Source: Psilocybe cubensis
Taxonomy: Eukaryota
Direction of reading: 5' to 3'
NCBI GenBank assembly: GCA_017499595.2
Contig: JAFIQS020000014.1
Location: 62,001 to 126,000 of the forward strand
Length of the DNA: 64,000 bases
The notes below the pieces were generated by a model that saw only the letters and a list, made by a program, of their open reading frames with translations, made no database searches and was not told where the DNA came from. This document shows positions 8,523 to 32,421 of the stretch, piece after piece (the first letter of the stretch is position 1; every line of letters begins with the position of its first letter). The position numbers were made by a program, and so were the translations under genes.

Positions 8523-8732
8523 GATTCAAATTCAAGTGTAAAGACCTTTTATTCCTGTTTGACGCAACTCATAGCTATTTTTGGTGTTTGAGATCAGTTG
8601 GGCCTTATATGCCTCCGCAAATCCACGTTCGTAAATCATATACTTCCGTTTTATCGATGGATATTGATGAAATGATAACAAAACGAGGGCCTCTTGTTCT
8701 AAATCATTTAGATATATCGAATAAGTGCTCAG

Positions 8733-10261
8733 ATGTCGTTCTTGGTAAGAGATTACTCTGCTATTATAATTAACCTTTGTTCAATCCCTTTCAACAGAAA
8801 TTTATTAAACATCTTATCAATTATTTCGACGAAAATGAACCTTATACATCCAAGAGGAAGCGCTCTCCGAGTGAAGACTCAAGTGAAGAGACAAGAAATC
8901 CACCCCTCTATATTAAGGACTCAAAGGGTGACGCTCTTAATTGTTCTTAACTCATTGATCTATAACACTTCTATACAAACAAGGTCGGTTTGTTCGATAT
9001 ACACCCAGTTCCGAAGGCATGAAAAAGCCATTGGGTGAACCGAAGACCGAAGGTATGTAGTAATGCCTTTAAAACTGTGCATTAGATGCATTAACCATGT
9101 CATTAGTGGCTCGTGAGATTGTATCCAAGTCGTTTGTTCACCCGCTTCTCCGAAAGCAAACAATCAAAGATACAGGACCTATGATTGCGCCTACCAATGA
9201 CACGGAACAGCTTCCCATCAACTGGGATGGCTGGCCCGATGGATACATTGAATTAGACCTCTCCCATGCCGAGTTTTCGGCAACTAAACAGTTGATGTAT
9301 CATTGGGCGTACACCGTATCAGGAGGCTATAAATCCGGGCTCGAAGACCCTAATGCTGATCGTTGGGAGGACGGAAAGCAATCTACACGAAAATGCTGCG
9401 GAGTTATTCTGTGCACCAATAAAGATTGCACAATTGTTGTTCGTCCAAACACCAAGGAAACTGCGTTTAAACATCAGGTAAGTCGTGAATTAGATGTGTT
9501 CGCATTTCATGTCAATTTACCAAATTTTACCAAATTTTTAGCTCCAAAAAAAATGTGTATGTGGAGCGCGTTTGTACCACGAGAAATGCGAAATACGAGC
9601 AACTCTATGGAAGTGGGCTGGTGGTATCCATTATGTTCATCCTGGATTTCATTCCCACCAACGCCTTACACATATCCTTCACATTACTCAAGCAGAAGAA
9701 TCTCGCTTCATCGAGATTGTAACTGCAAACAAAGACATTGGTCCTCTGGGCTTAATCGTTGGAGTCCCGACAAAAAATGGCCCCGGTGAATCTGTCGCAG
9801 ACATTTCGGATGTTTATTTGAATCGTGATCGAGTTCAGAAGGATCGCCTCAAGATTTGTGGTCGCTCGTCTCAGACTGCTCAAGCACTCTTCCAGGCCTT
9901 TACCGAATTTTCCAAAAAGTTTCCCAACTTTGTAATCCACTCCGAGTTCATGAACGAAGTCGTCATATCTGTTCAAACAGATTTCATGCGCTCGCAACTT
10001 GTCAAATTGGATGCCCTTGACGAGGCAGTCAACGGTACAGTCAATGATGCTGCACACGGTTGGTGGAAGGAACGTCAATGGGTCTTGATTATCTCGTCAA
10101 CCTATTGTCCAGTGCTTCTATGCTGGGTACCCGGAGTCATGTCGTTCAGCAATGGGCAAAGCACTCAGCATTTCAAGTATCATTTCATTGCTGTCTTTCA
10201 AAGCATTATTCGCGAAGCAAAGGAGAAGGATATTCCTGTTTCGCACTCAATGTTTGCTGGA
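8733..10261 (+). CDS. GCM-domain MULE transposase, 5' exons
   Basis: Spliced MSFL|KFIKH...; GCM motifs INWDGWPDG, RKCCGVILCTNKDCTIVVRP, CVCGARLYHEKC...WKW...GFHSH; first candidate catalytic Asp in VNDAAHGW; ends MFAG|gtacgt at 10262. Confidence 0.85.
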
Positions 10262-10608
10262 GTACGTCACTGAGACATACTAGTATCGTTGGTTCCATCA
10301 GTAAATCCGGATTTTCGGAGGTAACTCAACGTATTGTCCTGCCAACCGGATGTAGCATCAAAGTGGGCTGTAGACAGTATAGCGTCATGTGTCATCGGCG
10401 GGATGCTCCGTTGAGCTCTGTAGCATTCCAACATTACTACTGCGAGCTTTGGATTTTCCTAGCTATCTCTATGTACGATTCCAGACTTAGGAGAGTTTGA
10501 TGTCCAATGTGATTGGTCTCAGTAAAGCTCTTCAATCATATCAAGCAATAAAATGTACATTTTTAAAGGCAATTAAGTGTCTATTTACAATGTAGTATCT
10601 TGACCCTA

Positions 10609-11159
10609 TTAATGATCCTGACATTCTCGTATGAGATCCTGCCCATTACTAAGAAAGTGTAGAAACAAAGTAGTTATCACTGTGACTCACCTCTACCGTT
10701 CGAATATGAATCTGGCCGTTGGCTATAATGGACATCCCTTGGGTCAATATGTGCTCGGGGCTGCCTGAGTCTGCATCCCGAAGTGTCTCCTCCTAGTTAT
10801 CTTAAGCAAGAGTATCAACTTGAAACTTGAAGAAACAGAAAACTCACGGCTCGTGCTTTGAGCCACTGGTCACCCTCGGTAATCTTGGCTTTAGCCAACG
10901 ATAGTAACCTTGGGTCCAGGGTGGTCCAGTTAATTTCGTTGAAAAGGGCCAGGATGGCCAGTATCAGCCTGTTCTCGGTCAAAAGGACCATTTTTTGGGT
11001 CTGCTCAACTAACTGAGCCATTTCCAAGTCGTATTGCTGTCTTTGAGAAGCAAGTGAGGCGGCCTCTGGGAAAGTTGTAGGATGTATTAGATCTGGGAAA
11101 GTAGGGGCCAATACTTCTGCTTCGATTCGTAAAATTTCCTCATAGCTGATGATTTGCAT
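10609..11159 (-). CDS. Small hypothetical helical protein, 3 exons (Plavaka cargo)
   Basis: MQIISYEEILRIEAE...KARA|EETLRDAD...RTVE|DLIRECQDH* with canonical GT-AG introns. Confidence 0.6.
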
Positions 11160-11403
11160 GGTGTGTGATACGCTCACTTTGTCGTAGTTGGAATTCAAGC
11201 TGAAAACAAACTTCGCGGGTATAAAAATTCTTCAGGGGTTCTGTATACGTAAAACAAAGTTCTATAGATTTTTCTAGGCTAGTCTAAGAAGATGCCTATC
11301 TAACTGAATGCGGGAGGAGCGCGCGTAGTGGTGGCAAGCAAAAGAGTGATTATTGAGAATGCGTACTACATGGCGCGGTCGTGAAAGTTGAAACTTATTG
11401 AGA

Positions 11404-13047
11404 CTATGTGGCAGTTGCAGCACTCTCACCAAAGGCGCATTTGCCGACCCAGAGTCGCCATTGCAAGGCTTGTGCGAGGGCACGTTCGCAGCGACCAATT
11501 TCACGAGGTGGGAGACCAGATAACCTTGCCCAAGCACGGTTAGAATAACACTTTTCTTGTGAAAATTTGGAGGCCAGGATGAGGGATGCCAGAAAGGCTC
11601 TACGGGGACACAGGAGGGGAGATGGCAAAGAAAGGGTGGTGGAAAGAGGAGCCGTTGAGACCTGCACATCTACGCTGGACAGAGAGTCTTGTGGATAGAT
11701 GCACGATTCAGCCAGATCTTGTGAACCAGAATCGGCAACACGGAATGTTTGCATAGAATTGTCAATGAAATTATTGATGATGTTGATCTTGCCGGAGTTC
11801 TCAAGAGCAGTAAGCTCAGCATCCATCGCCAGCTCTTCTGGGGTAGCTTTCTGAATACTGCTTTTGGGCTGAGCATAAGAGCGAATGCCGATGTTTTCCT
11901 CTTGCAAAATCTGTGGGACCTTGGGACGAATGGATTCTAGATAACATAGTGCTATCTGCAGTACGTTTTTAGATGTCCTTGAGTGGCGAAGGACTTTATA
12001 AACAAAAGACTTGAGGGGTAATATCTGATCGGATTTGGTGCCCGAGGCAAGCAAGAGGGTCGGGGAAGGGTTATGGCCGGATATGGAGGGATGACTGTTG
12101 TGTGGATGTATTGGATGTGTATGAGACGCTATGGATTGCAAATCGGAAGAGATCTGCTTGGAAGTTGGACGGGAATGAGTAGGAGGAAAAGAGCTACCCC
12201 CTACTTTGGCGGGGGGTAGGAACACGGAAGGAATATCCTGAGGGTGCCAGATCTCGGACAAGGTGCTGACAGCTTGATCTGCAATGGAATTTAAAAAATA
12301 AAGTGAGTATCTCCGGCAAGGTGGGCGCTAATTGAGGACAGGACGGACCGGCAAGCCTTGAAAAAAATTTTTGTTTAGAAGAAGAGGCGCTCTGGGAAGA
12401 ATCCTTTGGAATTTGCGCAGTGGTGGGTGGAATAGATGAGTGAGAACAACTTGATTCTGCAGAAATGAGACGGATGGAGGGGTATTCAGTAGGTAATGAT
12501 ACAGAGGCATGGCAGGTATGGATTGTGGGAGAGAGGCCAATGCTTTCCTCTTGCAAATTTTGGGAACCTTGGGACGAATGGCTTCGAGATAACATAGTGC
12601 TGTCTGCAGTATGTTTCCAGATGTCCTCAATCCTCAAAGGACTTCAGTGGGTAGAAATAGGGAGGGAATGTCTTGAGGGCGCCAGATCTCAGATAAGGTG
12701 CTGACAGCTTAATCTGCAATGGAATTGAAAAAATAAAGTGAGTATCTCCGGCAAGATGGGCGCTAATTGAGGACAGGACGGACCGACAAGACTGGAGGCG
12801 AATTTTTGTTTAGAGGAAGAGGCACTCTGGGAAGAATCCTTTGGAGTTTGGGCGGTGGTGAGCGGAAGATGAGCGAGAACGACTTGATTCTGCAGAGATG
12901 AGATGGATGGAGGGATATGCAGTAGGTGACGATGATACAGTGTGAGAAAGCGGGACTGGTGAGAAGCGGCTGTTGATATTGATCCGAGTCGTCTTTGTGT
13001 ACAACGAGGCCGGCGTGTTGGGTGATAATTTGAGTGGCAATGTGCAT
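11404..13047 (-). CDS. PHO80/Pcl-family cyclin-like protein (Plavaka cargo); 5' part partially duplicated and rearranged
   Basis: PLKSFVYKVLRHSRTSKNVLQIALCYL and SPLLCPRRAFLASLILASKFSQEKCYSNRAWARLSGLPPREIGRCERAL...LQWRLWV. Core ORF is 11404-12261; the true start is uncertain. Confidence 0.8.
12241..12930. repeat. Direct ~260-bp duplication (12241-12500 and 12676-12930) including an intron; 12540-12630 repeats 11890-11985
   Basis: Shared ...AAATAAAGTGAGTATCTCCGGCAAG...CTAATTGAGGACAGGACGGACCG; peptide ALCYLE.IRPKVP occurs twice. Confidence 0.88.
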
Positions 13048-13087
13048 TAGGGATTGAAAACTTTGTGGGTTTCCTGAGGTGGATATG

Positions 13088-16000
13088 TTATGATGACAGG
13101 GCCAAATAGAGTTCTTTGTCAAAATATTTGTTTAATCGGAACTCGGTGCTAGTGGAATGACTGTTATGTGTAGTAAGGCTTCGCCTTGCCTTCTCGCCCA
13201 TCTGAGGGACCAGATCAACCAGGGAGCGTATTTGATTCAATGGTAAAATTCCACCCATAATGGTGTTATCTGTACGTTGACTTCGTTTTAATTTATACAT
13301 GCCGGTTATTGGCTCTGGGTAAGGTCCACGGATCGCAGAACCTAGAGACTGTGGCTGATTTAAAACCTCAAAACGTTGGACGTATGCGAGAAATCTTCCA
13401 GTAATATCGGGAGACACAGTACTGGGTGTCTCTCCGACAATGCGAAAAATAATACGAATGTCGACGACAGAATGGCCTACAATATTGGCTGGTCAACGGG
13501 GTTCGGAAAAAAGTCACAAAGAAGTACTACCTTGAAGCCCGCTGCGAGGCCACTCCTCAGATTCATCCACGTTTATGATTGCTGAATCGAAGTATCCAAA
13601 AGGATGTTTGTTAGATGGCGGATATGCATTAAGTGTGACTGCCTCCAGGATCTCATGAGGGTATTGGTACGCAGTCGACTGTATACGGACCTTATGCCAT
13701 ACCTCAAGTTTTGAATACGGCAACGGACAACCGGGAGGAGAAACACGCCTGCCAGTTATCCCCTTGATGTGATAACCTCGAGAATTGGTCTGTCTCGGAT
13801 TTGATTCCTTATTGATGAGTGACACATAATCGGCAATTGCTGGTCGTAGGTCGGGAATTTTAAAAATGCTCGCAACCTCGTCGATATGCAATCTTTTGGA
13901 ACTAGCATCCCTAGATAAATGGGCAACAACGTTTTTGCTGCAAGAAAATGTTCTGTAGGGGACTGGGCCTTCCAATACGCCACGCTCATAGAGACTAGCT
14001 TTGTAGAAGTAATCCACAATGCGATTGGACTTTGCTGATTGAAAGGTTGTCATCGGCATGATTGTTGAAAGAAGTTCTGACGTTGTGTCCATCACAACCT
14101 CGCCGTTTTCCTCCCCCTCATCCCCCTCCTCCTGCTCCTCCTCATCCGTAATTGTTGCAGAGTGTATAGCCCGAAAATCAATCCTCATTTCTCGTATAGC
14201 TGTAAACAAATCGAAATTGCGCAATTTGTCACGACGATCAAGGTATCGACAAACTTGAGGCTCGTATCTTTGATTATTGCTGGAACTGGAAGGGGCTTTG
14301 ACCACCTCGATATGTGCATGCTCTGTCGTGTCTGCAGACCATTGGATTGCACATCCATTTAGTCTAATTGCGTGTACTACACTTTGCAAAAACTCGAGTT
14401 TTGGAATATAGAAATTATCGATTGGGTTGTTTTTTTTTACCTCGACGTGCTCCCGCGTCAAGGATGGCTTGTTTATTGGCATGGAAATCTTGCAGTGCCT
14501 GCTCAATTCTGAGACACATTGCCTCGGAGATTGTTTGAGATTGTGCGAGATACCGAAAGTCCATCAGAGACCGGATGGCTAAGATAAAGGGTGTACTGAC
14601 TGTGTCTGCAATGAGAGCAACAATGTATCGCTGAACGTCCCGATGTTCCCTACCGGTCACTTGTTTCAAGGAAGAAATCCCTTCCTTGAAGTGTCGGAAA
14701 CCAGTGCGGTGCTGTAAAATCGAAAATCGAAAATCCAATTCGGAACCTCCGACTGCAGCAATGCACCATTTTGCATCATGATCCCAGAACATCTTGTGCC
14801 AGTGATGAAGGGGTTCAGGCGTAAGGAATGCAGAAGGATCAGACAAGGGCCAATCTCTCCAAAACGGTAGGTGAACCCCATTGAGACGGTGCTTTTTGCT
14901 TTCTTTTAGATATGGTTCGAGATGATTAGGGGGCTTAACATTGTTGATGGCCATGATGGTGTTGATTGTATGATCTGCAGTTCGGGAAGGGTGGCGAAAG
15001 GAATCCCCAAACGTCTCGTATTGTGCCAACGTCACAGAGGATGTGGATCCTGCGACGCAAGCCGCCAGAGCAGATTCTGGAGTATCAACGATAAGGGCAG
15101 CAAGCGGTGTAAAGCAGAAACGATTATTCCCCAATGCATCTGCCATGGTGGTTCCCACCCTCGCAGTTTGTTTGACCGATTCTAGAGCAATGTCCATGCA
15201 CTGGTGATATAGCCGTGCTGCCATCATCCCATTCACAGCTTTGGAGCGATGAAGAAACTTTGGTATGGGAAGAAGAACAAAAAGAAGGAATAAATGATTT
15301 GACGATTTGTTTCTAACGTTCATCATTATGTTGGCAATGCTGATAAGGCCAGGGTAGGCGACACGGCCTCCGGTCATGTTGGAAATGTTGGTTTTATCCG
15401 TGGAAATAATAGGAGGTATAAGTGTTGCTCCTTTTGGGAGCTGGTCCTTGGGAACCTTGTTATACTGTCGTCAAACTTGGACAAAGGCATTGCTACTAAC
15501 CTGCATAAAATGCGCAATGTCACCGCTAAACCACTCAGTGTATACCCGCATCATCTCGTTGCACTTGTCGAAGAGCTTGAATGGGCTAAAGTGCATGCTA
15601 TCTTGGAGCAAGGGACTGATGAGAAGCGCCTTGATACATTCCAATCCATCGCGGTAAAAAAGCGTTAGCTGATTTTTGCTTGGTATTTCTGGTATGATCG
15701 TTTGACTCTTCCACTGCGGACCAGAGGGAAGGATCTCTGCCCGGTTGCGTAGATCTTTTGCCGACTTGTAGGACAAGTTGAGTTTTTTTATCTATACGGG
15801 ATCGACTCAGCTGAAATAAATAATGATGGGAATGTACGCTCAATTACCAGTTCAAGTTTCAAAAAATCATTCAGCATTCCTACGCTCATGTCAGAGCGAA
15901 GTAGGAACAGGGAGAGCTCCCATTCATCTTTCGAGGCAAAAGGATAGTACAAATTTTCCGCCCGCTGGGGTTCGAATTGATCCTGTTTGAGCTGATCCAT

Positions 16001-16393
16001 GAATGTAAGGCCTGTTCCAAATGCTCTTCCAGCCCCGTTATAATCCTCCTTCACGTACGGATAGTTGTATTTTGATGCCTTGGGGGGTGGGTCATCTTCC
16101 ATCTCTGATGACGCGCCAAGAAAATTGTCGATATAGTCCACTTCCATAAAATTACCAATTTCGGGAGAAGGGTCTCGAGATACGGGGGTTGCTGATCTAG
16201 ATGTAGAGCTTGAACGATTGGACTGAAAATGCATAACGTTCTCATATTGAAAACGACATGCCGATTTTGGTTGATTGATGTGATTTTGGACATCTGCATG
16301 CTTAGCGAATGGCTTGTTGCATCGAGGACAACGCACACAGATTTCCTGAGTTCTCTTGCCCTTGCCCTTTCCCATGTTGAAACAACGACTCAT
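13088..16393 (-). CDS. Plavaka transposase with N-terminal zinc finger; +1 frameshift in a homopolymer at 14430-14438
   Basis: YYPFASKDEWEL, AEILPSGPQWK, RVYTEWFSGD, GATLIPPIISTDKTNIS, TGGRVAYPGLISIANI, PEPLHHWHKMFWDHD, QVTGREHRDVQRY, IPKLEFLQS, QWSADTTEHAHI, FRLNKYFD. Confidence 0.93.
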
Positions 16394-16864
16394 ACAAAAG
16401 CGAAGATACGAAAAAAAAACTGATAATGTAATGTTCAGTAACGTGCAGTGGGTCTATAAATGTTATCTGATTATGTCTCCGTTAATACAAACAAATTTCA
16501 CATGGGTTAGTATTCAACCAATCCGTAGTACAATCCAAGGAGGGCTTCGGAAGAGCTTTACTGTATATACGCACCAGAACAAAGACACTAACACATTTTT
16601 TGAAGTGGGTGGAAGAAGCATCAACAAACGTAAGTTAGTTGATTTCATTGACCTTGATGATAAATTCAAACGCACAGCAGTTACAGTAAAGCCAGAAGCT
16701 TTCATCCCAGCGAGAATTTGCGTATTGGTCTGGCGATACGAGCAGCACACAACTACAGATAATAAAACAATCGTCATTATGTTACAGGACATACACGCCT
16801 TTCAGTACTAAATAAAACATGGCATGTATGTAAATCAAGATGTGTGTCAATGTGTTGTACAATA

Positions 16865-19800
16865 TCAAAGTCGCCGTCGTTTAGAAGGCGGAACAGACTC
16901 TGATTCTGATGAAGAGATAAGCATTTGCGACGTAAAGGCATAATCAAACACACGTACTCGGATTTGTGCTCTCCAGCTTGACTTTCATGCCATCCAGATA
17001 CAGTTTATCCCTCACACTCGTACCAAGTTCCAGAATCTCCTTGGGAGTTCCTAGTTTGTGACGTGGTTAGTGAATATCCAAAGGCAGACACTGGTCCACC
17101 TACTCAATTGCGTTGAGGAATCCGCACAGGCATCACAGTCAATGAGAGTGATTACGGGTAACTTGAGCATCTTTGGGACCGAGGAACGAGGAAGCTGGTC
17201 GATACTGCGACATATAACCTTGTTCAATTCTCCGCTGCAGACGCCCTGAAGCTGGACAAAAAGCAAACTGGTGTCGGTACAGCAAGGGGCACCACCAATG
17301 TTGTTATGTTTGGCTTCTGCGTCGTAGGCTAGAATCATACGGGCATAGCGGCAAAGTATCATTTCATGGAACTTTTCTGTCGCCATGATATTTTGTGCAT
17401 CCTTGTTTTTGTCCGTCTCAATCATGTAGTGGATGGACTTCGTGCGATGACATAGCCACTCTAGAATAGCCAAGGCTTCGCCACGGGCAAAGATGCACGC
17501 CTTGCGCTCTTCGTCGCTCAGGCTGTTGGTATCCCACCGCATCCATGCGTCTAACTGTGCCGAAGTCTTGGTGGAGAACATCTGATCGGGATTTCGATAG
17601 GTCTCGTAGTCGAGCGCATTTGCCAAGATCATGCACACGCACAGAGCTATCAAGCTCGAGTATCCGGACTGCGTACTGTAGAATGGGACATGGTACATTT
17701 CATAAAAATCTGAGAGAAAATAGAAGAAAAGAATCAGATATCTTGTAGGAAACGGTAAAAAACCTCATACCTTCTGGGTCGCTGTCACCTTCAACCAAAA
17801 CCTTGTAGAACCAATGTATGGTTTGCTGCAGGAAAAATCGGGACGTTGAATGATTCGTATTCGTTGCCCTGTATCCAGCGGTAAAACAGTGAATGATTCC
17901 TGTCAGGGTTTCTTCGAAGGAAGTGGAGGAGTAAAAATGTCCGCCACGGCAAACCACTGAGGAGATAGAATACGCCATATGTAGAGTATTCGGTCTCATG
18001 AAGCTGTTTTTCAAAGTAGCGTCAATATAATCAAATGGGTAGGACATTCAAAAATCACATACAGTTCTGACTGGTTATCGAGAACAATCGCCTCGTAAAT
18101 CCAGTCTTGGTGGTGCGTTTCCCCGTAATCCAGCTTGTCTCCCAGAAATACACGGCGGTCAGAAGAAAGGTCAACATCCAACCGTCTGGGATACATGATA
18201 ATCCACAGCTTCAGTCCATGAAGAGGTTGGATGAAGGAACAGAAACCATTGGCATCGATATGGATATCTGAAAATGCCCCCTCTGTAGCTACGAGTCCCC
18301 ATGACATATCACCAAATGGGACGGGGGTACTATACTTCCAGCTACCAGATGTAGCCCGAAGAGCAGCCGCCTCAGTACTCAAGTCAAAAGAGTGAGCGCC
18401 TGCATGAGGTAAAGGGATGTCGAGGGCATTGAGGATCTTTCCTCTTTTGCCTTTCATCCTCGCTGCTTCCATGACCTGAGAGAGGGACCCACGCTTAATC
18501 CTCTCGATGGGGTTAGACGACATGGTCGACATATCTGTTACGGCCATTAGCATGAGACGCAGAAAGAAAAATCAAAACATCGAAGAGGAAACACACCTTG
18601 GATTGACCTGGTGCTCGTCATATCACCCATATGGCGACGTACCTGGCTGTAGAACTCGTCGGAGCAAGTTGAAATAGACTCCTCTTGAGAAGGAGACATA
18701 AGGACGACGTTCCTTTCAGAGAAAGACTCCATCAGATACATGGATTTCGTGGTGCTGCGGTCAAATACCGCAAAACATGATTCTTCGGGACGTGCTATGT
18801 GCAATGGAACTCCATCGACGTAGTCACTCTCGACCAATTCCAGAACCCTTTCAACACGATCCACGTCGGCTTGACTCTTGTTTGGAGAATAAATAAATGA
18901 CGAAAAAATCAATATCGAGAATGACTTACATGGGCAACAACGCAGAAACTTTTAAGTTGGCCACGACCGTTGTAGGTGGACCAAACTTTGGTGCCATACA
19001 CCTTCTCCGGAGTGCTGACGACATCAAGGGTGGTGTTGCTGTCGTACAGATCGACATCAATACACAGGTCGTCGTCCGAATCAAATGTGTCGGTAGCCTG
19101 CGTCGGCTTGCGTTTGGGAGGCCGCTTGGAAAGGCCCTGCCGGCCCTTCCCTTTCCCTTTCTGAGAGGAGTCAGCCGTGGTGTTTTTGCTCCTGTTTATC
19201 TGGGAAACAGGAGGAATCCTCAAAATAAGAGGAGCAGGAGGTGCGTTCTCCCCCTCCTTTTCGCCTTGGCTGTCTTCCAATGTATTCCTCTCCATGTCTG
19301 AGGAATCATTGTTTTGCTCTGGGCCTACCCCCTCTCCATCGACCGACATTCTGTCCTCCTGGACTGGTGGAACATCCCCTTGCCCCTGCTTCTCGGTCTC
19401 ATTGTCCGACGAACTGTCGTCTGGCCTTTCCTCCTCACCATCTTCTGACATTCGGTTCTCCTCGTCGGGTCGTTCTCCGTCTTGCCCCTGCTTTTCGCCC
19501 TCGTGAACTTCCGACATACGATTTGCCTCGTCAGAAGACCCTTCAGCTCCTTGTCCAGCCCCGCCGTCTCCCAAATTTTCTGGACCATTGGTATGTGGAC
19601 CATCCTCCATTTGATGGTCGACATCAGCTTGCTCCGGATCGACGTTCATCTCACAATCCCCTGCAGTTGAGGGCCCAGTATTCTCAGTCTGAAGTAGACC
19701 AGATCCAATATCATCACTCCGCGGCAAACCAGGTTGCTCGTCCGTGGGCACATCCTTGCCAGCCACCGAAGATGTGTCTTCCGGAGGCTGTATATCTGAG

Positions 19801-21753: not shown

Positions 21754-21930
21754 GAAACACGCTATTTCCGGAGCGATTCTTTAGGGTAGGTTTCCCGTCC
21801 TGAAGTCACGAGTTGGTTAAAAAAACGCCCCCTTACATCAGGCTGATGTAAGGGGGCGTTTTTTTAACCAACTCGTGACTTCAGGACGGGAAACCTACCC
21901 TAAAGAATCGCTCCGGAAATAGCGTGTTTC
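21754..21930. repeat. Perfect palindrome: 88-bp arms, 1-nt loop at 21842; imperfect extension 21718-21967
   Basis: GAAACACGCTATTTCCGG...CCTTACATCAG-G-CTGATGTAAGG...CCGGAAATAGCGTGTTTC; outer ACGCTATGACGAACGGAAAGA pairs with TCTTTCCGTTCATCATAGCGT. Confidence 0.97.
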
Positions 21931-22070
21931 TCACCATATGTTTTCTCTTTCCGTTCATCATAGCGTCTTATCATAGTAATAGGTTGTGTAGTATCTAAAA
22001 ATAAATTATCACAAGTTAAGATGATAAATTAAGTGAGATGAACATCGATTAACAGTCTTTAAGACCCACA

Positions 22071-24430
22071 ATGTCTAGTTATAAACGCAGACGACTTGAC
22101 AGCCTAGGCAACCGCACAGTGTGTACTAATCCAACCCTCCATCTAATCACTAACTTCAGGGAAATTTAATTATGATCTCAAAAAATCAGGACATTAATCC
22201 CTTCATAGACATTGAAGCAGCGGTTTCCGATGATGATGAAAGTTCGGAAGAGCTTGATTATGAAGGGGGCCAACTACGTATGTTCCAATAATTTACATAT
22301 ATTCTGCTCAATATGTACTGATGCTAATGGGTTCTGACATACAGTGAATGATAACGATGAATACTCTGAGGATGAGGAACGTGTTGCACACTCTCGGCTA
22401 TATCATGCCATGCAAAATACAGATAACGCTGATGAATGGAGCGATTTGTTGCCCATGCTTCTGCCTTCACGCATGAAAATTCGTCCTGACAATGATATAG
22501 AGCCATCTAGTTCACGAGAACTTATACAGAAATATGGCAATCCCCAACCAGGAGGACTTGGTGATAATAATTATATGCCTTCCGCGACTGATATCATGTA
22601 TGAAATAGGTTGCAAGGTACGCAAAAATAATATAAGTCTTCAGTCAGCATTTATTGATCACCTTACGAGTGATAGGTTGGACGCGAAAAGGCCGTCGCTT
22701 TCAAAATTATGCAGATGTCAACGAACCCTACATTTCCCATCATCCTTGCCCGGTCTGTCTTCGCTCAATCCTCAATTCCTGGGAGAATCTACGTCGAGGC
22801 GCCATCAATGCAACATGCGCATACGTTAGCCTGCCTCGTTAGAGAGCTTAATCCGACACATTTAGTTAGGCTATCCTCGGAGAGATGTATGGAGATCCTA
22901 TCTCATCCCCCACCCTCACGCCCTGAAGACCAATCGTGGGTCAAGGTTGCTGGAAAGCGTAAGGCTTGGACGACCTACGCAAATGCTACCGGCCTTGTGT
23001 TCACATTCCAGGGTCGGAAAAGTGTTGTTCTTATCCCCAGACCTCCGGACAACATCAAGAAATCGCACCTCGACAGGATATTCCAGGATGGATTTATTAT
23101 CACGGATTTCGACGCCATCGATCTCAAATATCTTTCCAATGTCCTCCCAACATCGTCCGAGTTGGAGCAATTTCGCGAGTGTCCATTTGTAACGACGGAG
23201 ACCTTAGCGCAAGCCTCGAAAGCCATCTCCATGACTCGACTGAAACGATATGATCGAGTCAAAATTATTGGTGGAGAATACTTAGGTCTTTTTGGAACGG
23301 TCAAGAGTGTTTCTGACGCTGAGGTGGAAGTGCACATCCCCTCCCAAGGTATAACACAAGCAGTTGCACTACACGATCTACGTGCAGCTTTCCAGATAGG
23401 CGATAGTGTTGAAGTCGTTGAAGGGGATCACAAAGATCTCCATGGATGGGTGTCAGACTTTGATGGAAGATCTGTTTGTATTATCGCCCCAGAGCACGAA
23501 CGCGAAGTAGGTGAACTGTCATTCTCTTTGTCTCAGTAGTGTTCAACACATTTTTCAGGTCATTGTGCCCATCCACACAGTCATATTCTACGTCCCCCCT
23601 GCCCATGCTACTCTTCGCCCGCGAAAGCGTCATTCGTCAAAGCTTGGAGAAAGAGACCACAACGACGTCTATATAGGTTTGAGTGTCATCGTTGTCGGGA
23701 ATAATACATTCAAGGGGTACTATGGCATCGTTAAAAGCACTACCCCCGACGGCTTTGCAGACGTTGAGCTGGAAGCTCGTAACCAGAGGGTGGAACGTAT
23801 TAAAATATCACATTTAATTATACAGTATGTGGTTTCACTTGATTCGTTGACTGTCAGGTGCTTACTGACATTGTTTCAAGCAACCGAGAACATATAAATT
23901 CCGCTCAAGACCCCGGGCCTTCTGGTGGAGCAACTCCAATGCCGTCCACAGTAGCAAGTTTTCTGTCTCCTGCATGGAATCCGTATTCAGCAATACCTGT
24001 ACACTCGGCGGTGGAAATCGCAGAACTACCCTCAACCGTCGCTCACTGGCTAGATACGAAATACGATAAGCTGAAAGGATTACGATTAAAAGTCGTAGAC
24101 AAATCCAAGGGCGACCATCAAGTGGCGATGGAACTTCTCAGCCTTACCGACGATACTGCCCACCTAGCATTACTGGGACGTACACTGACATTACCGAAAT
24201 CAGTGTTGTTTCCAATTCATCCTGTAAAAAAGGACGACTTCGTTACACCGCTTGAGGGCGATTCAATGGGGATTATATTCAGGATACGATCAATAGACAA
24301 GGATATTTGCGTTGTACATAAATATCCCGTTACTCGTATGAAACGCGGTGATACATTCCCAACTTTTCCGACAACATCTTTGATTCAAATCTTCCCCCCG
24401 TCCCGTGGTGTCAAAGTTGTAAATATGTAG
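22071..24430 (+). CDS. Divergent SPT5-like transcription elongation factor (Plavaka cargo)
   Basis: Acidic N-terminus NPFIDIEAAVSDDDE; NGN-like YEIGCK|VGREKAVAFKIM...SVFAQSSIPGRIYVEA; KOW motifs DRVKIIGGEYLGLFGTV, GDSVEVVEGDHKDLHGWV, VIVVGNNTFKGYYGIVK; residual CTR-like GGATPM...SPAWNPYS. Confidence 0.85.
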
Positions 24431-24597
24431 GGTGCAGCATTACTTGTATTTCGAACACGGACTTGTAGACATATACGGGTTTTATGTCATTCTATTTAAG
24501 TGTATTTCGGCAATCAACAGTGCTAATGGTTCGTAATGTGTTGATCGTCTTGAACTTAAGCCACCACCACCACACCAAATTGTTGCCTATCTTTATC

Positions 24598-24953
24598 ATG
24601 AACCATTCCAATAGCAACAACGCTTCGCAACCTCAAAGTCGCCGCCTCCCTAGCATACCCGAAGAGGCAGAGTTCTTCGTTTTAGGTCTATTTTCATGTT
24701 TTAATCCACCTTCCTCTAGAATCAAGGCATAGAGGCCGTTAAAAAGGCTCTTGACCAATTTCAACTCACTGAACAGAGGTGTCTAGAAGTTCAGGCAGAG
24801 CTACGTTGTTATATGGACGACATTATGCGAGCATATAAATCCAATGAAGATCTTCTGTTTGAAACCCAGCTCGAAATCGCCCGTCTACGGGTATCCCTCA
24901 TTAGTCGGGGAATACCTATTCTAATGCACCCTCAGGATAATCCGCGATCATGA
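24598..24953 (+). CDS. Small hypothetical coiled-coil protein, 2 exons (Plavaka cargo)
   Basis: MNHSNSNNASQPQSRRLPSIPEEAEFFVL|...EAVKKALDQFQLTEQRCLEVQAEL...ETQLEIARLRVSL...PRS*. Confidence 0.5.
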
Positions 24954-25224
24954 TAGGTGCAGTCTTTTCCCCTCTGAGATGTAACTTTACTTAACTCTAA
25001 GTAGGACATGGAATCTGACTATAATGTATATGTGATATATTGTAGTAGATAGGGGTACTGTTTCAGTACCTGTAATTTCTATATGGCACGATATATTTTT
25101 GACTGATGTCCGTCGCCTTAAATTTTGAAAAGAGGCTAATTTCGCATACCTCCGGATCGTAGCTTGACATAATTCACCACCCCTTATCTCTATTTCTGCA
25201 TTACAACCGTCAAACCAGCCCAAT

Positions 25225-27966
25225 ATGCCACCTAAAGGATCCAAAAAGAAAAAGGCGGTTGTCAATGCCACGGTTGAAGGTATCATCTATATATCCTCAT
25301 TACATCCGCATACTTAATGTTTTATCCATCTAGGACAAGAGGTTGAACAGGGTCCGAGCTCCGTGGCAGAAAACGAGCCACCTCAGGCTCCTGAAGCAGG
25401 TCTGTACTAGCATTTTCTTTGTTGAGATTCACTGAACTCTTTATTAAAAAGACCCCAATGGCCGTCCTATCCGAAGCACCCGTGGTCTTGGTGGAGTAAA
25501 TGCTCGGCAGGAGAAAACATCTAACATCATTTTTATTGACTTCGAGAAGGCTGGGAAGAGGAAGTCAAGGGCCGCCAATGTGGATACTAGCGCCATGCCT
25601 GAAAATGAGATGGCGCCTCCCTTGAAGAAACCTCGCAATGGGGTGAGTCTACTGTTCTAATCTTAAATTTGCTATCTTCCAAGCACGTCTAGGTTACCGT
25701 TGTGTCGCATGTAGGTCCCCCTATTCAAATGCAACCAAGGCCAACGCCTTCAGTTGCTCCTTGGGATGTCCAACAAGTCCAACCAAGCCCACGACAATCT
25801 CAGGGTGCCCCCCCTCCTGTCCAGATCCAACGTGCAGCTCAGAGAAATCAGGAGCACTCAGAGCTTGATCATGCTGTCCAAAGACCCACTGCCCCCATCC
25901 AGCGCCCCGCTGCTCCGGTACAACAGCCAGCACATCCTGTCCCGCGCCCCGTACAACATGCAGCACATCCTGTCCCGCGCCCTGTACAACACGCAGCAAA
26001 TCCTGTTCAGCGTTACGCTGCCCCTGCGGCAGAGAATTCTGTCCAATACTACGATGCCCCCGTACAACAACCAGTGCATCCTGTAACACAACATGCCCCC
26101 ATACAACAGCCAGTGCATCCAGCAGCCTATAACGCCCACCAAGAGGCTAGCATCAGCCATCAAGACGAGGAGGAGCAACAAGATTACGAAGGCATAGAGC
26201 AGGAGGAAGATGAGGAGGAGGAAGAGGGGGATAGTGACGGTGAAAGGCGATCTGAGGAAGCATCAGGGGACGAATGCATGCAAGGAATTGATGAAGAGAA
26301 TATTGGGGATGAAGAAGCTCTCCAATATGTCGACGGTGATGAAGGTTACGACGACGCGGGTCAAGATGATGAAGAGCCTGCTGCCCAGCGTTGGTTTAAC
26401 TCCACCTTTATGTCGTGTTTGCTTACCACCTATGTTTGACAGTGGTTGATGAAGTTTCCGATGATGAAGAGGAGAGGAGAGCAAGGGCATTGCTCCGCCA
26501 GCCTTCCCCCCATGTAATCATTTCTCTGCTGTATTTAATGTCTAGCTAATGTATTATTGATATAGGTTGTGGAAGTAGAGGATGTTCTTCAAGAACACCG
26601 TCGTCGTAATCGGGCGAACAAGCCACCTCGCCCTGAGGCATTGCGCAAGGCGGCTGTTTCGCAAGGAGCCGTATCCCAAGGTTTGACAAGGGAGAACAAC
26701 GAAGCATCTGACGATGATGAGGTGCTTGGTGAGGCACACATCGCTCATAAGAAGTCCAGTACTTCTTCTGCTAGGGAAGTATCCAAGCATTCAGTTGCAT
26801 CCTTTACTGGTTACTGGAAAGATGTGCTCAAAATTGCACGCAAACTGATGTGCCTGTATGTAGTAGAGGAGGTCCCCTTTCCCACTCGGGAAAATCACTT
26901 ATTAGTCGCCGATGGATGTGTGAAGATGGCAGTAACCGTGTTTGAAAGAATGAACACGGATAAAGTGTTGCCTGATAGTAAGTTCTGTCTTCTGTGATTT
27001 TAGTTAATTGGTTTACATAACTTTGCAGAGAAAAAAACGCTCCTAGACAGGAATACCGCCGTAACGGTATATTTTTAGCGTGTTCTTTTAAGGATATCGT
27101 ACTAACGTGTCTGTTCTCATTAGGCATTTGTCTACGCGTCAACCTTCCGGGGAAGACTGAAGACGATGATCAGACCCCTGGTCAAAAATGCGTATGGCCT
27201 CGAAGTCCCGTCGGAGGTCATCGCCGCGAACCCCAATATGTTTGAAAATCAGATGGGGGAGATCGAATACATCAAGGACAGGGTAGCATATTGGCTACTC
27301 AATGGTAAATACCACCGGGGTGTTGCCAAAACCCGAGTGAGTTCGCCGTCCATTTTACCTGGCTTACCACTCATTGATTTGTTTCCAGTATCACGATGTC
27401 CCATTTGGACATCCTTTTGTGAAGAAGATCTGTCTGGACTTCTTCTACCATCCTACAAAAGGGGTTGCAGTCCCCATCAAAGGTCTGGAGACAAAGACGG
27501 ATTTCTTCAAGACATCGCTTCCCCACAAAGCATTTGCGCTTGTGGCCAGTTGTGTAGTTCTGATTTCTCTCCTGCTATTGGCACTGCCTTGCTAACAAGC
27601 ATTTTGCTGTAGATCCACAACTGTCTTGAGGAGTGGAGGGATGGGATTGACCCTGCAAGAGGTGGTCCGTGTTCGGGTATTGAATTCAAGGGAGAGGAGT
27701 ACTCCCTGAGGTATGATGCCTGCATGTTGGTTGCAGCAGAGGCAGAGAAGGATACCTTGAACCAAGGTCCTCGCTTGGCTCGCTTATGTAGGGAAGTGGC
27801 TGAGGAAGGATGGTGTGTATCTTTTTTTATTCATTTCTTTCTTTGCATCATTTAGATCTCCATAATCAGTGCTATTATGAGGCCTACGAAGAACCCCCCC
27901 AACCCTTATAGGATGACTCTCCATTCTATCCCACAGGAGGAACTAGATTACGGTCCAGAAGGGTAG
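25225..27966 (+). CDS. DUF6532-like protein with basic, P/Q-rich and acidic N-terminal regions (Plavaka cargo)
   Basis: ASTFRGRLKTMIRPLVKNAYGL, PFGHPFVKKICLDFFY, LPHKAFALVASC|IHNCLEEWRDG, EFKGEEYSLRY; many short introns; internal 33-bp QHAAHPVPRPV repeats. Confidence 0.75.
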
Positions 27967-28234
27967 TTGGGTGAATGAGCGGGGCAGCTGCCGGGTGTGG
28001 ATTAGAAGATACCATATTTAGATCGTCACGTATTAATAGTTATGCATCTACTAATAGAAACATGTTTGGTCCGATCCAAACATAGATTATCTATTTTTAA
28101 AATTGCCCATTTTAGTCAAAAATGGTTCGGTTTTCAGTGTGATATTGGCACTTGCAGGAATAGCCACACAACACTATACAAATGAAAGTGGATACTATAT
28201 ATGCCTTTGTACCTATTTGCAGTGTGTTATGATG

Positions 28235-28350
28235 TGCTACAAATCTGTGGTAGCATGCTACAAATCTGTGGTAGCATGCTACAAATCTGTGGTAGCATGC
28301 TACAAATCTGTGGTAGCATGCTACAAATCTGTGGTAGTATGCTACAATTT
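28235..28350. repeat. 21-bp tandem array TGCTACAAATCTGTGGTAGCA (5 copies plus partial), subterminal in the Plavaka element
   Basis: Seen directly; unit junctions form the palindrome GTAGCATGCTAC. Confidence 0.95.
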
Positions 28351-28598
28351 GTATGTCAGTTGTATACAGAGGGGTATGGACCATGGTAAGCATGCTACAC
28401 GCCGCTACACAGCACTCGCGTTACAATACAGATCACTACAGAGTACCATGTCACGTTGGTACCAAGCTACAGGTACATCAGTGTGTGTTACCCAAATGGG
28501 ACCGTTACTATGGGCACTACAGAATTACGTATCACTACGGATCATTACCTACTTGGCCCCGGTATTGCTGATGTCTATTTGATGATGTATTCTCCTAG

Positions 28599-31500
28599 GT
28601 TATGGACTTTAGCGAAGCCGAAAGAGAAGGCTTTATTTTGGGGTATATCGAGTTCTGGCAGCAAGAACCAACCAACACCATTTCACATGATGACCTCCGA
28701 ATTGCGGCTACGCGTCTTTTAAGTGGATGTTTAGAGCATTATCGAAGGGGTGTTACGCGTGTTAGCAGGATTGGCGGCGTTGTTCCTGTTGAAAAAGCTG
28801 AGGATTTCAAGAAACGTGCATTAGAGCTTGTTGACCTACCTAACGCTGTAGAGTTTCAGTTGCAAGCAGCAAACCTTGTACGCGATTTTCCAAAGCTGAA
28901 TAGCTGGATGGCGTGGTGGACACGCCCTTCTCACGCCTCTATGCTTTTTTATTCCCAACGGAAAATGGACATAGATGTATGGAAGTCGATTCCGAAGACT
29001 ACAAATGCCGAGGAAGCAATGCACTGGAAAATGTACTGTGCTGCTGGACGGGATCATGACTTTATGGCTGGAATGTATGCTCTTCATGCTGTTGCGCAAT
29101 ATTTTGAGCGAGTATATAATGCAGCACTTGGTGAGTAATTGTATTTTCTGACAGAGAACTATATTTACATTTTAATTACAGAGGGAAAACCTATACGGTA
29201 CGGCAAGGCCGAACCGTGGAAATCAACAAAAGAGAAGCTTGGTCGTACTAAGCCTACTCGCGCACCCGACGCTGCTACCCAAAAGCGGAAACACAATGAC
29301 GGTCGCCCGCCAGATACCGTTAAAGAACTCCTTGGACAAAAGCACAAAAAACAAAAGCTTATTCAATCAGATAACTTGCAAGAAGAAGCGGCCCTCACAG
29401 TTTTAGAAGATGGCAACATTAACCGCTATTCAAAGACGTTAGACGACACTCCAGCAATAGTTCGGGAGCCCTCCCAACATCAGGTTGTCGCTTCTAGTCC
29501 ACGTACTTCTGCACATCCCAACCGCTCGCCAATTGCATCTTTTCCATGGAAAGATAACTCATGCTGGCTGGATGTGGCTCTTACTCTTCTCGGCGCTGTA
29601 AATGCATCGTTTGATTCGTATTTTTACAGCATATGTGGACCAAATTTACCGGACGACTCAATGCTTCGAATACTTGGACAAACACTACAAGAGTGCCAAA
29701 ATCTTAGACGAGGACGGATATCACCAAAATCACTTCTTATTGGGCTAGGAAAGCAGCGAGACCTCTTCCGCAGGTCACTTAAAAGCCAGAAATTCATTAC
29801 AAAGTTGACTTCATTTGATTCAGTTTTCGTAAGTTCACGTTTTCTTGTGTATATATTATGGGCGCTTAAATTTGTTAGGGTTGGTTCAACGATGTTGTTC
29901 AAAGGGAACAACACTCACAGTGGTACAGATCAGCGGCATCTCTCCAGATATTGACCACATCGATCCGCTTCTGTACAGGATCCGAGGCTATTGGGGGCCC
30001 TCATGTAGAACTGTCAACAAAGCCACGGAGTGCGCGTTTTTTGCAGCTAATGCCTCGGGACTATGACCAGTATGGCGGAGATTTGGAAAGATATTTTTCC
30101 AATTATATCTCGCTGGATCGCTGTCCAACACCTTCCTACATCTCTTTTGACTCCATTGATTGTGCACCTGAGCGGGTCAAATGCTGGAGAACAAAAGATG
30201 GTGTCTGTCTTTGCCCAGGAGAACGAGAAGACATACGGGACTTGGTTATATCCCTTCCTTTTATGCTATACTTTGAGCTGGCAAACGATACTGGCGAACC
30301 TAGTCTGTCTTCTTGGGATCTTTCACCAATTCTAAAGGCTGCATCTGGCGCTCCAGACGATTTTTCAGATCTTGTATACTATCTGGTCGGGCTAGTGCTT
30401 ATTGATTCCTCTGGAAGTCACTTTAGTGCCAGATTTACGCAGAATGGATTGGTCTACACCTACGACGGACTTGAAAATGGCGGAAACTGTGTTGTGGAGG
30501 AGAATGCCTCAATCGAAACACACCTTTCGGGAAAAGCGCCTATACTTCCTGATGGTTGTTGTGTTCATGCTATTATCTATGCGCACGAGGGAAAAGAGTC
30601 TGCACAAGATGCATTCTTTAATACACGACACAAATTGATCTCCGAAAGATTCAATATTCGATTCATATGCTCGATTGTTGGATTATACAGCCCACAGCAG
30701 CTTACTTATACGTCACCCGACTATGAACAGATGGATCCTTCTAAACAAGATTGGATCAGCAATAGAAAACTCGCGGAATCAACAGAAGAATATCTTACCC
30801 GCTCTAAACGCAGAGCAGTTGCTGTAAACAAGAAGACCACACCAGCAGAAAAAATAGAGCTGGATCCCGAATCCGAAGAAGAGACCTTTAACATCTCTAA
30901 AAGTCTTCTTACTCCAAGCAGTCCAGCACGCGGATCGACCCTAGTACTTGGCTCCACTTTGGGTAGTCCAGCCGAGTCAAAGTCATCACATTCGCGGGAA
31001 TCTTCACCTTGGTCTAGCTTCTCAATAAACTGCCGATGCGGTTTGATTGGAGATGGAAACAAATACTATCTTGATGACGAACATGGCGCGGCTGTCCAGT
31101 GTGACTGGTGCAAGGACTGGTCGCACATAGCATGTCAGCGAAATGGACGGGCAAGCAATCTGGGAATCACAGACGACTTTATTTGTGACTCGTGTGATGT
31201 TAGAAATCATATTATACCACGTTCGAGTGCAGAACGGTAAGCATGTCATACTCTCTGTTGTATTTACCAAGTTGCTTATTTTCCCTAGTATGCAATGTGC
31301 AGAACGTATTGGAGACAGAATATGTCTTGCAGACCGTCTCAAGTAAGTTAAATACATTATACTACATACCAATACTTAAAAATTTTAACAGAGAAGGTCG
31401 AGGTGCCCTTTGCCTTCATGGTGAATTCTGGTACCCAGTTCGCATCATCCAACGAGTTTCAAATGGGTGGCGCGTGCGGTGGTGGAGAGATAATCAATAT

Positions 31501-32421
31501 GCCACGATGCCTCCTGGAGTGGGTTCCCAAATTACATCCATAGCTCCAGAAGATCATGTCGTGGATTCTCTATGGATGAATGCAGAAGGACGAAGACAAA
31601 TACGGGTGAGCTCTACGGATTCTATTGCCTTTTCTTGACTAAAAAGACAACCAATATAGCTTGGAAAATGGATTCACGCACATGAAGTAAAAGATAATGA
31701 CGAGATATTATCTGATCCAAGTTCTATCCCCTTCACTGAAGACATTGACCGAATCCTCATGCCGCATATCAAAGTTCTGAAGGCGCTTCTCAACAACAAT
31801 CGCAAATTCCTTGCATCAAAAACGATTCCTGCAAAGAAGTGGCATGACGAGCAGAAGAAAATGAAGAACTCAAAGTCCTTCCTGAAATCTGGTGTTATTC
31901 CATTTACTGGTCAGTTAACAATTATTGAACGCGCTCAGATTTCGAACTGGTTTGAATGCAAAATCGCCAACAACGACATTAAAATGCGAATTAAATGGGT
32001 ATCCTTCCCGCCTCTCGCCCATGCTTTTACTCTTTATATTGCTCATCACCTCAAGCAAAATCCAAGGTTCACAGACCTTTTGGATGACCGTCTTATTGAA
32101 GAAGCATGGTCAGCTCAATGCTGGGAACGACCTACCTCCAAGAACGAAATTGATGTTGATAGGGACTGCCTACAGCTTTTTGAAGAAGAAATTTTTGAAG
32201 TTTCGGCGCGTGCCGGAGTTGCAGGACACTGCCAGTGGGGACTCGATGTGGGACCACATCAAGATGGGTGGAACCCATACGGTGGACTTCCAGATTACTT
32301 CAACTTTGGTGATAGAGAAGGGGATGACAGTGAACTCGAGGTATGTGGTTTAATATTTTATTCATACAAGGATACTTGCTCACCAATGGCAAACTAGCCC
32401 GGGCCTCAATTCTTAGCTTAA
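28599..32421 (+). CDS. GCM-domain MULE transposase, 3' exons: DDE core, USP-like peptidase, PHD finger, Tudor-like barrel
   Basis: VMDFSEAE (D), GCLEHY (CxxH), PKTTNAEEAMH (E); WKDNSCWLD Cys box; YYLVGLV...SHFSARF...YTYDG His box; CRCG...QCDWCKDWSHIAC...FICDSC PHD; FWYPVRII...WRVRWW; QWGLDVGPHQDGWNPY. Confidence 0.85.

Follow-up and report, generated by a model that had tools for sequence, protein, structure and literature searches.

A probable autonomous-type MuDRF element of Psilocybe cubensis combining GCM, DDE, USP-fold peptidase and PHD domains in one predicted protein and carrying a nested PlavakaB-type transposon

The element and its gene

We analysed a window of 64,000 nucleotides from Psilocybe cubensis (GenBank assembly GCA_017499595.2, contig JAFIQS020000014.1, positions 62,001 to 126,000 of the forward strand); all coordinates given below are positions in this whole stretch. 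At 7817-32784 the window holds an element of 24,968 bp, which is very probably an autonomous-type MuDRF of an agaricomycete, i.e. a member of the GCM-bearing branch of the Mutator/MuDR transposons, with a PlavakaB-type transposon nested inside it and with a chromatin mechanism that we propose further below. As modelled, its gene encodes in one protein and in this order a GCM domain, a DDE core with a CxxH motif, a USP-fold cysteine peptidase, a PHD finger, a candidate Tudor-like barrel of small size and a helical tail. The ends of the element, with its terminal inverted repeats (TIRs) and its target-site duplication (TSD), and the parts of the gene are the following.

7808-7816, no strand: left TSD copy, ATCCATACC, read in the sequence and identical to 32785-32793
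7817-7890, plus strand: left TIR, starting with GGGCA and running into subterminal repeats of 10-11 bp (repeat search and blastn)
8361-8524, minus strand: two arrays of a subterminal 10-bp repeat, the unit of which contains TGCAGGGA on the minus strand; inverted with respect to the left TIR
8733-8744, 8798-8927, 8984-9052, 9107-9477 and 9542-10261, plus strand: exons 1-5 (homology and splice signals)
10262-28598, plus strand: intron 5, GTACGT...CCTAG, 57 nt if the nested element is removed
28599-29130, 29182-29828 and 29879-31236, plus strand: exons 6-8 (homology and splice signals)
31344-31605, 31660-32340 and 32398-32421, plus strand: exons 9-11, with the stop codon TAA at 32419-32421
32639-32765, minus strand: right subterminal repeats (repeat search)
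32708-32784, minus strand: right TIR (repeat search and blastn)
32785-32793, no strand: right TSD copy, ATCCATACC, read in the sequence directly outside the right end

The ends of the element were set by the imperfect TIRs together with the perfect 9-bp TSD, and both ends begin with GGGCA. In the repeat search the inverted arms 7817-7855 and 32746-32784 matched at 87% over 39 nt and a second pair of arms, 7850-7880 and 32730-32760, at 94% over 31 nt. The blastn alignment of 7817-7890 with 32784-32708 gave 82.5% over 80 columns. TIRs flanked by a TSD of 9 bp, as expected for a Mutator/MuDR transposon, are thus found at this element. An earlier note, which a model had made from the letters of this DNA, described the gene region 8733-32421 as bounded by TIRs and a 9-bp TSD. 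Both exist but lie outside that interval, which runs from an ATG to a stop codon and gives the limits of the gene and not the ends of the element.

The repeats near the ends share a short motif. TGCRGGGR matched 16 times in the window, where shuffled sequences averaged 5.9 matches and never exceeded 11, and 10 of the 16 matches were located at 7865-8517 or at 32758, i.e. at the ends of the element. The arrays at 8361-8524 lie approximately 210 bp upstream of the transposase ATG. Beyond the element a direct repeat of 78% identity connects 1528-1917 with 32964-33335, such that one copy is found about 6 kb to the left of the element and the other about 170 bp past its right end.

When candidate GT..AG introns were scored with five to nine homologues as the reference, a gene of 11 exons was obtained, the product of which has about 1,601 aa and is free of in-frame stops and frameshifts. 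Its start and stop agree with the single spliced gene that the earlier note had placed at 8733-32421. For the first three small exons a weak N-terminal similarity is the sole support. The tblastn alignments of two full-length homologues followed the window in collinear order at 9145-10264 and 28575-32373, and no homologue residues were missing at the break: residue 471 of the homologue P0001 was reached on the left side and residue 463 on the right side. The end of exon 5 precedes GTACGT at 10262 and the start of exon 6 follows CCTAG at 28598. The 57 nt that remain for intron 5 after removal of the nested element correspond to the size of the other introns of the gene. When the 36 stop-to-stop open reading frames (ORFs) of the region were compared with Pfam, the plus strand at both ends of the region matched a PHD finger only. 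A search with the PHD-bearing ORF of 453 aa retrieved five proteins from Flammula, Crucibulum and Panaeolus that are 1,440-1,590 aa long and all cover the query by 100%.

Domains of the encoded protein

The domains and catalytic motifs are distributed over the gene as follows; all are on the plus strand.

about 9223-9673, plus strand: GCM domain, split by the intron 9478-9541
10040-10060, plus strand: first catalytic Asp, in VNDAAHG (exon 5)
28602-28622, plus strand: second Asp, in MDFSEAE (exon 6, middle of the DDE domain)
28728-28748, plus strand: CxxH motif, in CLEHYRR (exon 6)
29004-29024, plus strand: Glu, in NAEEAMH (exon 6)
29182-30469, plus strand: USP-fold peptidase region with the intron 29829-29878 inside (motifs, fold and conservation)
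29556-29573, plus strand: Cys box NSCWLD (ORF of the window)
30416-30436, plus strand: His box SHFSARF (ORF of the window)
30455-30469, plus strand: Asp, in YTYDG (ORF of the window)
31031-31198, plus strand: PHD finger (PF00628, family profile and fold)
31344-31605, plus strand: exon 9, candidate small beta-barrel resembling Tudor, PWWP and chromo-barrel domains (low fold scores)
31660-32421, plus strand: exons 10-11, conserved and mostly helical C-terminal domain (model of the relative P0156)

Folds were compared using models of two relatives. P0042, a Mycena protein of 919 aa, covers the GCM, DDE and peptidase parts; its model was obtained from 40 sequences with a mean predicted local distance difference test (pLDDT) score of 87.9 and was compared with 48,161 representatives of the PDB. 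The C-terminal part was modelled on P0156, a Laccaria protein folded with 33 sequences at a pLDDT of 77.6.

In the ORFs of the window the GCM domain is recognizable by the motif WDGWPDG and by its Cys/His pattern. A profile built from 33 N-terminal fragments of the family matched mouse GCM1 (1odh_A) with an E-value of 1.3e-10 over residues 25-169 of the 174 residues of the chain, and this was the sole strong match of the profile to a solved protein. The alignment contains six Cys and two His columns that are invariant (C154, C160, C165, C188, C197, H218, H220) or nearly so (C186). In the fold comparison residues 1-180 of P0042 matched 1odh_A with a Z score of 12.6 and a root-mean-square deviation (rmsd) of 2.7 over 125 aligned residues at 26% identity. 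Both hallmarks of GCM (PF03615) are found, namely a profile match that extends across the entire domain and the Cys/His ligands for two zinc ions. The Pfam GCM model itself detected 14 of the 33 N-terminal fragments at E<=0.1 (best value 6.8e-8), while it gave no match on the window ORFs 9073-9786 and 9542-10270, between which the domain is split by an intron, and none on four full-length homologues at E<=1. For 30 long relatives five scores of 16.9-23.4 bits were obtained, below the cut-off of 25.

The DDE part has the features of a transposase of the RNase-H fold, with the CxxH motif positioned between the second Asp and the Glu. These residues are almost without exception kept in an alignment of 40 sequences: first Asp in 39/40, second Asp in 38/38, Glu in 37/38, and both Cys and His of the CxxH motif in 39/39. 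For residues 199-522 of P0042 the best fold match was the ISCth4 transposase (6xg8_A, Z 10.4), followed by Hermes (9.1) and the P element (9.0). A look-up with a language model returned Mutator-like element (MULE) clusters carrying PF10551 as the nearest named ones with scores of 0.93-0.91, which we take as a lead only.

In the exon starting at 29182 the conserved DDE tail and the Cys box of the peptidase share a single reading frame. Residues 565-900 of P0042 matched USP30 (5ohn_A) with a Z score of 20.8 and an rmsd of 3.9 over 280 aligned residues. USP36 and USP7 scored 19.6 and 18.4, and the first 35 rows of the comparison were all chains of the USP fold. A Foldseek search with the same model gave 372 matches at E<=0.001, among them USP18 (5.7e-11) and USPL1 (1.1e-10). 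The catalytic order Cys...His...Asp is present in the ORFs of the window itself. In the alignment of 40 sequences the Cys is kept in 26 of 28, the His in 33 of 33 and the Asp in 28 of 29 non-gap residues. His and Asp are 17 residues apart, which is also the spacing of USP7. The term deubiquitinase is used here as a statement about the modelled fold and the catalytic triad.

The PHD finger has the Cys4-His-Cys3 pattern and reached the Pfam gathering score, with 24.9 bits against a cut-off of 24 for the ORF 29879-31237. The family profile matched the PHD finger of Bye1 with 2.8e-11 and also those of SHL, ASH1L, MLL5 and BPTF, and the fold matched that of Ash1L (Z 5.7, rmsd 2.5, 52 of 53 residues aligned). 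For the segment encoded by exon 9, corresponding to residues 131-200 of P0156, the fold comparison pointed to Tudor domains at scores below the level that we trust: TDRD3 with Z 5.1 and an rmsd of 2.4 over 56 residues, PHF19 with Z 4.9, and MTF2 with Z 4.6 and an rmsd of 1.1 over 48 residues. PWWP and chromo-barrel domains matched at similar Z scores, and the segment had no Pfam match. A Tudor-like barrel is thus plausible from the model and not established. The helical domain that follows (residues 223-391 of P0156) was modelled with a pLDDT mostly above 85 and found no clear fold match in either the PDB comparison or Foldseek.

Relatives of the protein

A phmmer search with the ORF 9542-10270 against 1.84 billion representatives gave 409 clusters at E<=1e-3, 122 of them at E<=1e-30. 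Among the 51 other relatives of at least 550 aa, 18 contained everything from the GCM/DDE part through to the C-terminal end in one protein, at identities down to about 30% (blastp against P0001), and 13 further relatives extended from the N-terminal part to beyond the His box of the peptidase. In the window the open frame 29139-29951 contains the conserved tail of the DDE domain together with the Cys box. The assumption of the earlier note that the 5' and 3' parts form one gene is supported by the 18 relatives that span both.

As far as the relatives are named, they belong to Agaricales, Boletales and Polyporales. In Flammula, Laccaria, Mycena and Schizophyllum a genome contains several relatives, which are often fragmentary. 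One protein search that was limited to words returned 22 matches, all from Agaricales except for one Polyporales protein; it carries no information on rusts or Naegleria. In UniRef the relatives are named 'GCM domain-containing' or 'PHD-type domain-containing' only.

The transposon nested in intron 5

The single spliced gene of the earlier note needs a correction for the 18.3 kb that separate exons 5 and 6. This block is no original part of the gene but a Plavaka transposon that sits inside it and has a TSD of 2 bp itself, TC, at 10294-10295 and 28574-28575. Its features are listed here.

10296-28573, minus strand: PlavakaB-type transposon of 18,278 bp (termini CATCAG...CTGATG, 2-bp TSD, Pfam and a public contig)
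13517-16453, minus strand: Plavaka transposase gene (Pfam domains and zinc-finger-like ORF)
15474-15791 and 14418-15470, minus strand: ORFs with the Plavaka domain (PF18759; Pfam 2.7e-64 and 1.1e-16)
13517-14563, minus strand: DUF6830 (Pfam 1.1e-45)
15791-16453, minus strand: zinc-finger-like ORF, part of the Plavaka transposase gene
22676-23894, plus strand: Spt5-like passenger gene with NGN and KOW domains (Pfam)

According to the available text of a 2025 paper on fungal TET-carrying transposons (PMC12730594), PlavakaB elements have the termini CATCA..TGATG and a TSD of 2-3 bp. The nested element has a Plavaka transposase, these termini and the duplicated TC. The Spt5-like gene matched KOW2_Spt5 (1.2e-13), KOW (9.4e-08), KOW5_SPT5 (1.9e-06) and Spt5-NGN (1.2e-05) in Pfam; such a passenger on a DNA transposon seems unusual. 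TET/JBP had no Pfam match among the ORFs of the nested element. CACTA-type ends were considered as well and rejected: an ungapped search gave no inverted repeat scoring >=11, and none of the CACTR...YAGTG pairs was convincing.

The nested element contains further sequence features. An ORF at 27124-27609 scored slightly below the Pfam cut-off for DUF6532, and a Pro/Gln-rich ORF at 25693-26436 contains 33-nt repeats. Several ORFs on the minus strand at 10818-13492 and 17054-20120 are without Pfam match. At 21718-21966 there is a near-perfect palindrome with arms of 124 nt that are 93% complementary and separated by 1 nt; contigs of several public sequencing runs end at 21773-21841, i.e. inside it. 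A 21-nt tandem repeat occurs six times at 28214-28368, so that roughly 200 bp separate it from the right terminus.

Copies in public assemblies

To compare the region 9400-29300 with other genomes we used public DNA assemblies of four runs from three studies, called X1, X5, X8 and X9 here. A contig of 1,076 nt from X9 continues from 9526-10293 directly into 28574-28881 with three mismatches, such that 18,280 nt are omitted (two bases at the joint are ambiguous). The exact lack of the block shows that uninterrupted copies of the gene exist and that the interruption is a separate mobile element. In X8 the same joint was found, weakly supported with only 28 bases on its shorter side. X1 and X5 provided no contig joining 10293 to 28574. 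In X5 the insertion is present, since a contig covering 9532-10323 spans the left junction. A second sequenced sample therefore has this gene without the nested insertion, and the nesting is polymorphic.

Contigs of the insert in X5, X8 and X9 stop matching at 10294/10296 and 28573/28574 and continue into other sequence, which means that the block resides elsewhere in these genomes, too. In all four runs the word depth of the insert was about 10-14 times that of the flanking gene, a value that is not a copy number and gives only a hint that the Plavaka element is repeated.

All four runs furthermore contained a contig that joins 8968-8997 to 9526-9561 and the latter to 31875-31904. It represents a derivative of the same MuDRF element that has lost internal sequence and is presumably non-autonomous. 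Abortive gap repair of cut-and-paste transposons yields such internally deleted derivatives. At 28882-29090 contigs of X5 and X9 differ densely from the window, mostly by G>A and C>T changes and in addition by an insertion of 3 nt; they probably represent a second, diverged copy of the transposase gene.

For the copy in the window the frame is intact, yet intron 5 is now 18.3 kb long and holds foreign, oppositely oriented genes, due to which expression is probably poor or absent. This MuDRF copy is thus probably crippled.

Neighbouring sequence

Long ORFs of 259, 387, 710, 203 and 147 aa follow each other on the plus strand at 35198-40345 and have no Pfam match at E<=0.001. They possibly belong to a large unannotated gene or to another mobile element. 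Two inverted repeats of about 940 bp with 85% identity, at 47917-48854 and 54572-55500, are 5.7 kb apart; the ORFs here are without Pfam match, and the repeats may delimit another element with long TIRs. Arrays of short tandem repeats at 40984-41175 and 41770-41838 are inverted with respect to each other at a distance of about 600 bp. Over the flanks and the remaining ORFs of the insert Pfam gave no match in 28 ORFs.

Discussion

A number of results weigh against the view of the locus as a MuDRF element with the full set of domains. The TIRs, of about 75 bp, are alike by only about 82%. MULE (PF10551) and Transposase_mut (PF00872) gave no Pfam match on the ORFs of the window (36 at E<=0.01, 10 at E<=10), on four homologues (E<=1) or on 30 relatives (E<=0.01), and UCH gave none on the same ORFs, four homologues and 30 relatives. 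When the full-length family profile was compared with PDB sequences, the best 60 of 74 rows were PHD proteins only, with no USP among them. In view of this silence of Pfam and profiles the assignments to MULE and USP are based on the fold, the motifs, the length of the TSD and what has been published from PSI-BLAST. Models were made of P0042 and P0156 and not of the protein of the window, while splicing and the fusion into one transcript are deduced from homology and splice signals. Among public sequencing runs looked up for the region none of RNA was listed, and two runs presumed to be RNA contained almost none of its sequence words. For the C-terminal module every function is inferred. The Tudor-like matches remained at Z 4-5.1, below the level deemed trustworthy, and Foldseek returned no match at E<=0.001 for the C-terminal model of P0156.

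The check by profiles that the earlier note had suggested accordingly gave a mixed result. PHD reached its Pfam cut-off, while GCM, MULE and C19/UCH had no Pfam match on the window ORFs. With profiles and folds taken into account, the GCM, DDE, USP-like and PHD calls of that note turned out to be right. Its notion of a deubiquitinase-like and histone-reader module holds with regard to the USP fold, the triad and the PHD finger, and was overstated for the Tudor part at Z scores of 4-5.

If the locus is read as a MuDRF element, the following mechanism can be proposed. The GCM domain would bind the TGCAGGG(A/G)-containing repeats at the element ends, and the DDE core would excise and insert the element, which would generate the 9-bp duplications. 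The PHD and Tudor-like readers may anchor the transposase at histone tails that are methylated, and the USP-like domain could subsequently free chromatin or the transposase itself of ubiquitin or a ubiquitin-like modifier, which might serve target choice or the countering of silencing. In its general form, this would mean that agaricomycete MuDRF transposases possess a built-in, competent USP-type deubiquitinase as well as PHD/Tudor-like readers, with which they read methylated tails and erase a ubiquitin-type mark for targeting or silencing escape. We put this forward tentatively and consider it possible but somewhat doubtful.

The USP-fold domain might instead not act on chromatin, being either a protease for self-processing that releases the transposase and a reader piece or a ubiquitin-binding module in which catalysis is used or not. 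We regard this as unlikely. Viral papain-like proteases of the same fold are self-processing, and the MERS PLpro (4r3d_B) is found among the fold matches with Z 10.3. The sole weak Pfam hint at the Cys box was CoV_peptidase with an E-value of 0.14, and between the DDE and peptidase parts the model of P0042 has a low-confidence linker (residues 535-563, pLDDT below 50). In the fold comparison, however, the scores of cellular USPs are roughly double those of the viral enzymes, and no conserved cleavage motif was noticed, though no search was aimed at one. A binding module would agree with the Z score of 18.9 for the pseudo-enzyme Pan2 (4czw_A), whereas a dead module is difficult to reconcile with Cys, His and Asp being kept in nearly all relatives. 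It is also conceivable that the long protein is a domesticated, transposase-derived chromatin protein for which TIRs and TSD are the relic of one old insertion. The frame is intact despite TIRs of such limited similarity, chromatin regulators typically have reader and enzyme domains of these kinds, and the UniRef names of the relatives refer to GCM or PHD-type domains and to nothing else. Against this stand MuDRF families on record with TSDs (PMC3164196, as far as its available text goes), the many and often fragmentary relatives within single genomes with 409 clusters overall, the conservation of all three DDE residues, and the internally deleted derivative in all four runs compared. Domestication thus appears very improbable to us.

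The gene models could finally be chimeric, in which case the element would carry a GCM-DDE transposase gene and, independent of it, a gene for the USP/PHD/Tudor-like part. A second ORF is present in many MULEs, the fusion into one transcript was deduced from sequence, and 147 short database proteins consist of the C-terminal part only, while many others consist of the N-terminal part only. The ends of these short proteins coincide with intron positions or ends of contigs, however, and matches of this kind are no proof of a split gene. The exon 29182-29828 and the frame 29139-29951 moreover join the DDE tail with the Cys box of the peptidase, and 18 relatives, down to about 30% identity, are collinear single proteins. 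Two separate genes are therefore very unlikely, and we retain the view of an autonomous-type MuDRF with a single gene.

The locus provides a fully delimited MuDRF copy with an open frame of 1,601 aa and a domain-by-domain map. It also provides fold-level evidence, from the models, for a USP-type peptidase with an intact triad next to a PHD finger and, probably, a Tudor-like barrel. A further gain is a clean case in which a DNA transposon (Plavaka) has entered a 57-nt intron of a second one and in which this nesting is polymorphic. Should the peptidase act on ubiquitin-type marks, the element would encode a transposase able to edit chromatin on its own, which would bear on the target choice of DNA transposons, on the evasion of silencing and on the origin of the animal GCM factors.

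Comparison with known systems

Among solved transposases ISCth4 (PDB 6xg8), which belongs to IS256 and thus to the bacterial kin of Mutator, is closest to the DDE core of the element with 240 aligned residues and a Z score of 10.4. It differs by an identity of only 12% and an rmsd of 6.0 A, and as a bacterial insertion sequence it has no GCM, USP or reader domains. The GCM domain shares its fold and its two-zinc Cys/His pattern with mouse GCM1 (PDB 1odh); unlike in the animal GCM factors it heads a fungal transposase. In the accessible parts of Babu et al. 2006 (PMC1702500) the GCM1 family is listed as exclusive to animals, WRKY-GCM1 fingers are described on MULE transposases, and PHD fingers on some of the animal ones.

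MuDRF was named by Cantu et al. 2011 (PMC3164196). As far as the available text of that paper shows, it is a distant branch of MuDR that unites a GCM domain with a DDE transposase and has TSDs of 9 bp; the link to MuDR was reached after four PSI-BLAST iterations, and the N-terminal GCM domain is stated to be specific to MuDRF. The hosts given are Puccinia, Melampsora, Laccaria, Schizophyllum, Coprinopsis and Naegleria. Our element resembles MuDRF in having an N-terminal GCM domain and a DDE core in one protein, a 9-bp TSD and a basidiomycete host, and Laccaria, Schizophyllum and Coprinopsis are genera that hold relatives of its protein as well. The earlier note had seen in it direct evidence for a fungal GCM gene on a mobile element. 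The gene does lie within an element delimited by TIRs and a TSD, but the finding is not new: since MuDRF was published in 2011, this conclusion was already in print and the element is a further member of the family. In the same available text MuDRF is given with GCM and DDE only, and no mention is made of a USP-fold peptidase, a PHD finger, a Tudor-like barrel or a helical tail, while the annotation in Repbase or in the supplement may differ.

In the literature we found no USP-type peptidase and no PHD-plus-Tudor module on MuDRF or other transposases, with Repbase and PDF supplements being outside the search. The name MuDRF turned up in a single relevant paper. The words GCM, PHD, ubiquitin and peptidase do not occur in PMC5751038, nor does GCM in PMC6446971. 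The nested element, for its part, is in agreement with PlavakaB (CMCT clade; PMC12730594, available text) in its Plavaka transposase, its CATCA..TGATG termini and its 2-bp TSD. It differs by the 18.3 kb of this copy, by the Spt5-like gene and by the lack of a Pfam TET/JBP match.

Peptidases and PHD fingers have each been combined with Mutator-type transposons before. Plant KI-MULEs carry a Ulp1-like peptidase, which belongs to the Ulp1 (C48) fold, whereas the peptidase of the present element has the USP (clan CA, C19-like) fold. A PHD finger is listed for Rehavkus in Table 1 of Dupeyron et al. 2019 (PMC6446971), and, going by the available text of this paper and of PMC1702500, Rehavkus and the MULEs of nematodes and Ciona have a PHD finger on elements of the Mutator superfamily, as is the case here. 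In contrast to KI-MULEs and Rehavkus, a single predicted chain of the element described here unites the transposase with the peptidase, the PHD finger and a putative Tudor-like barrel.

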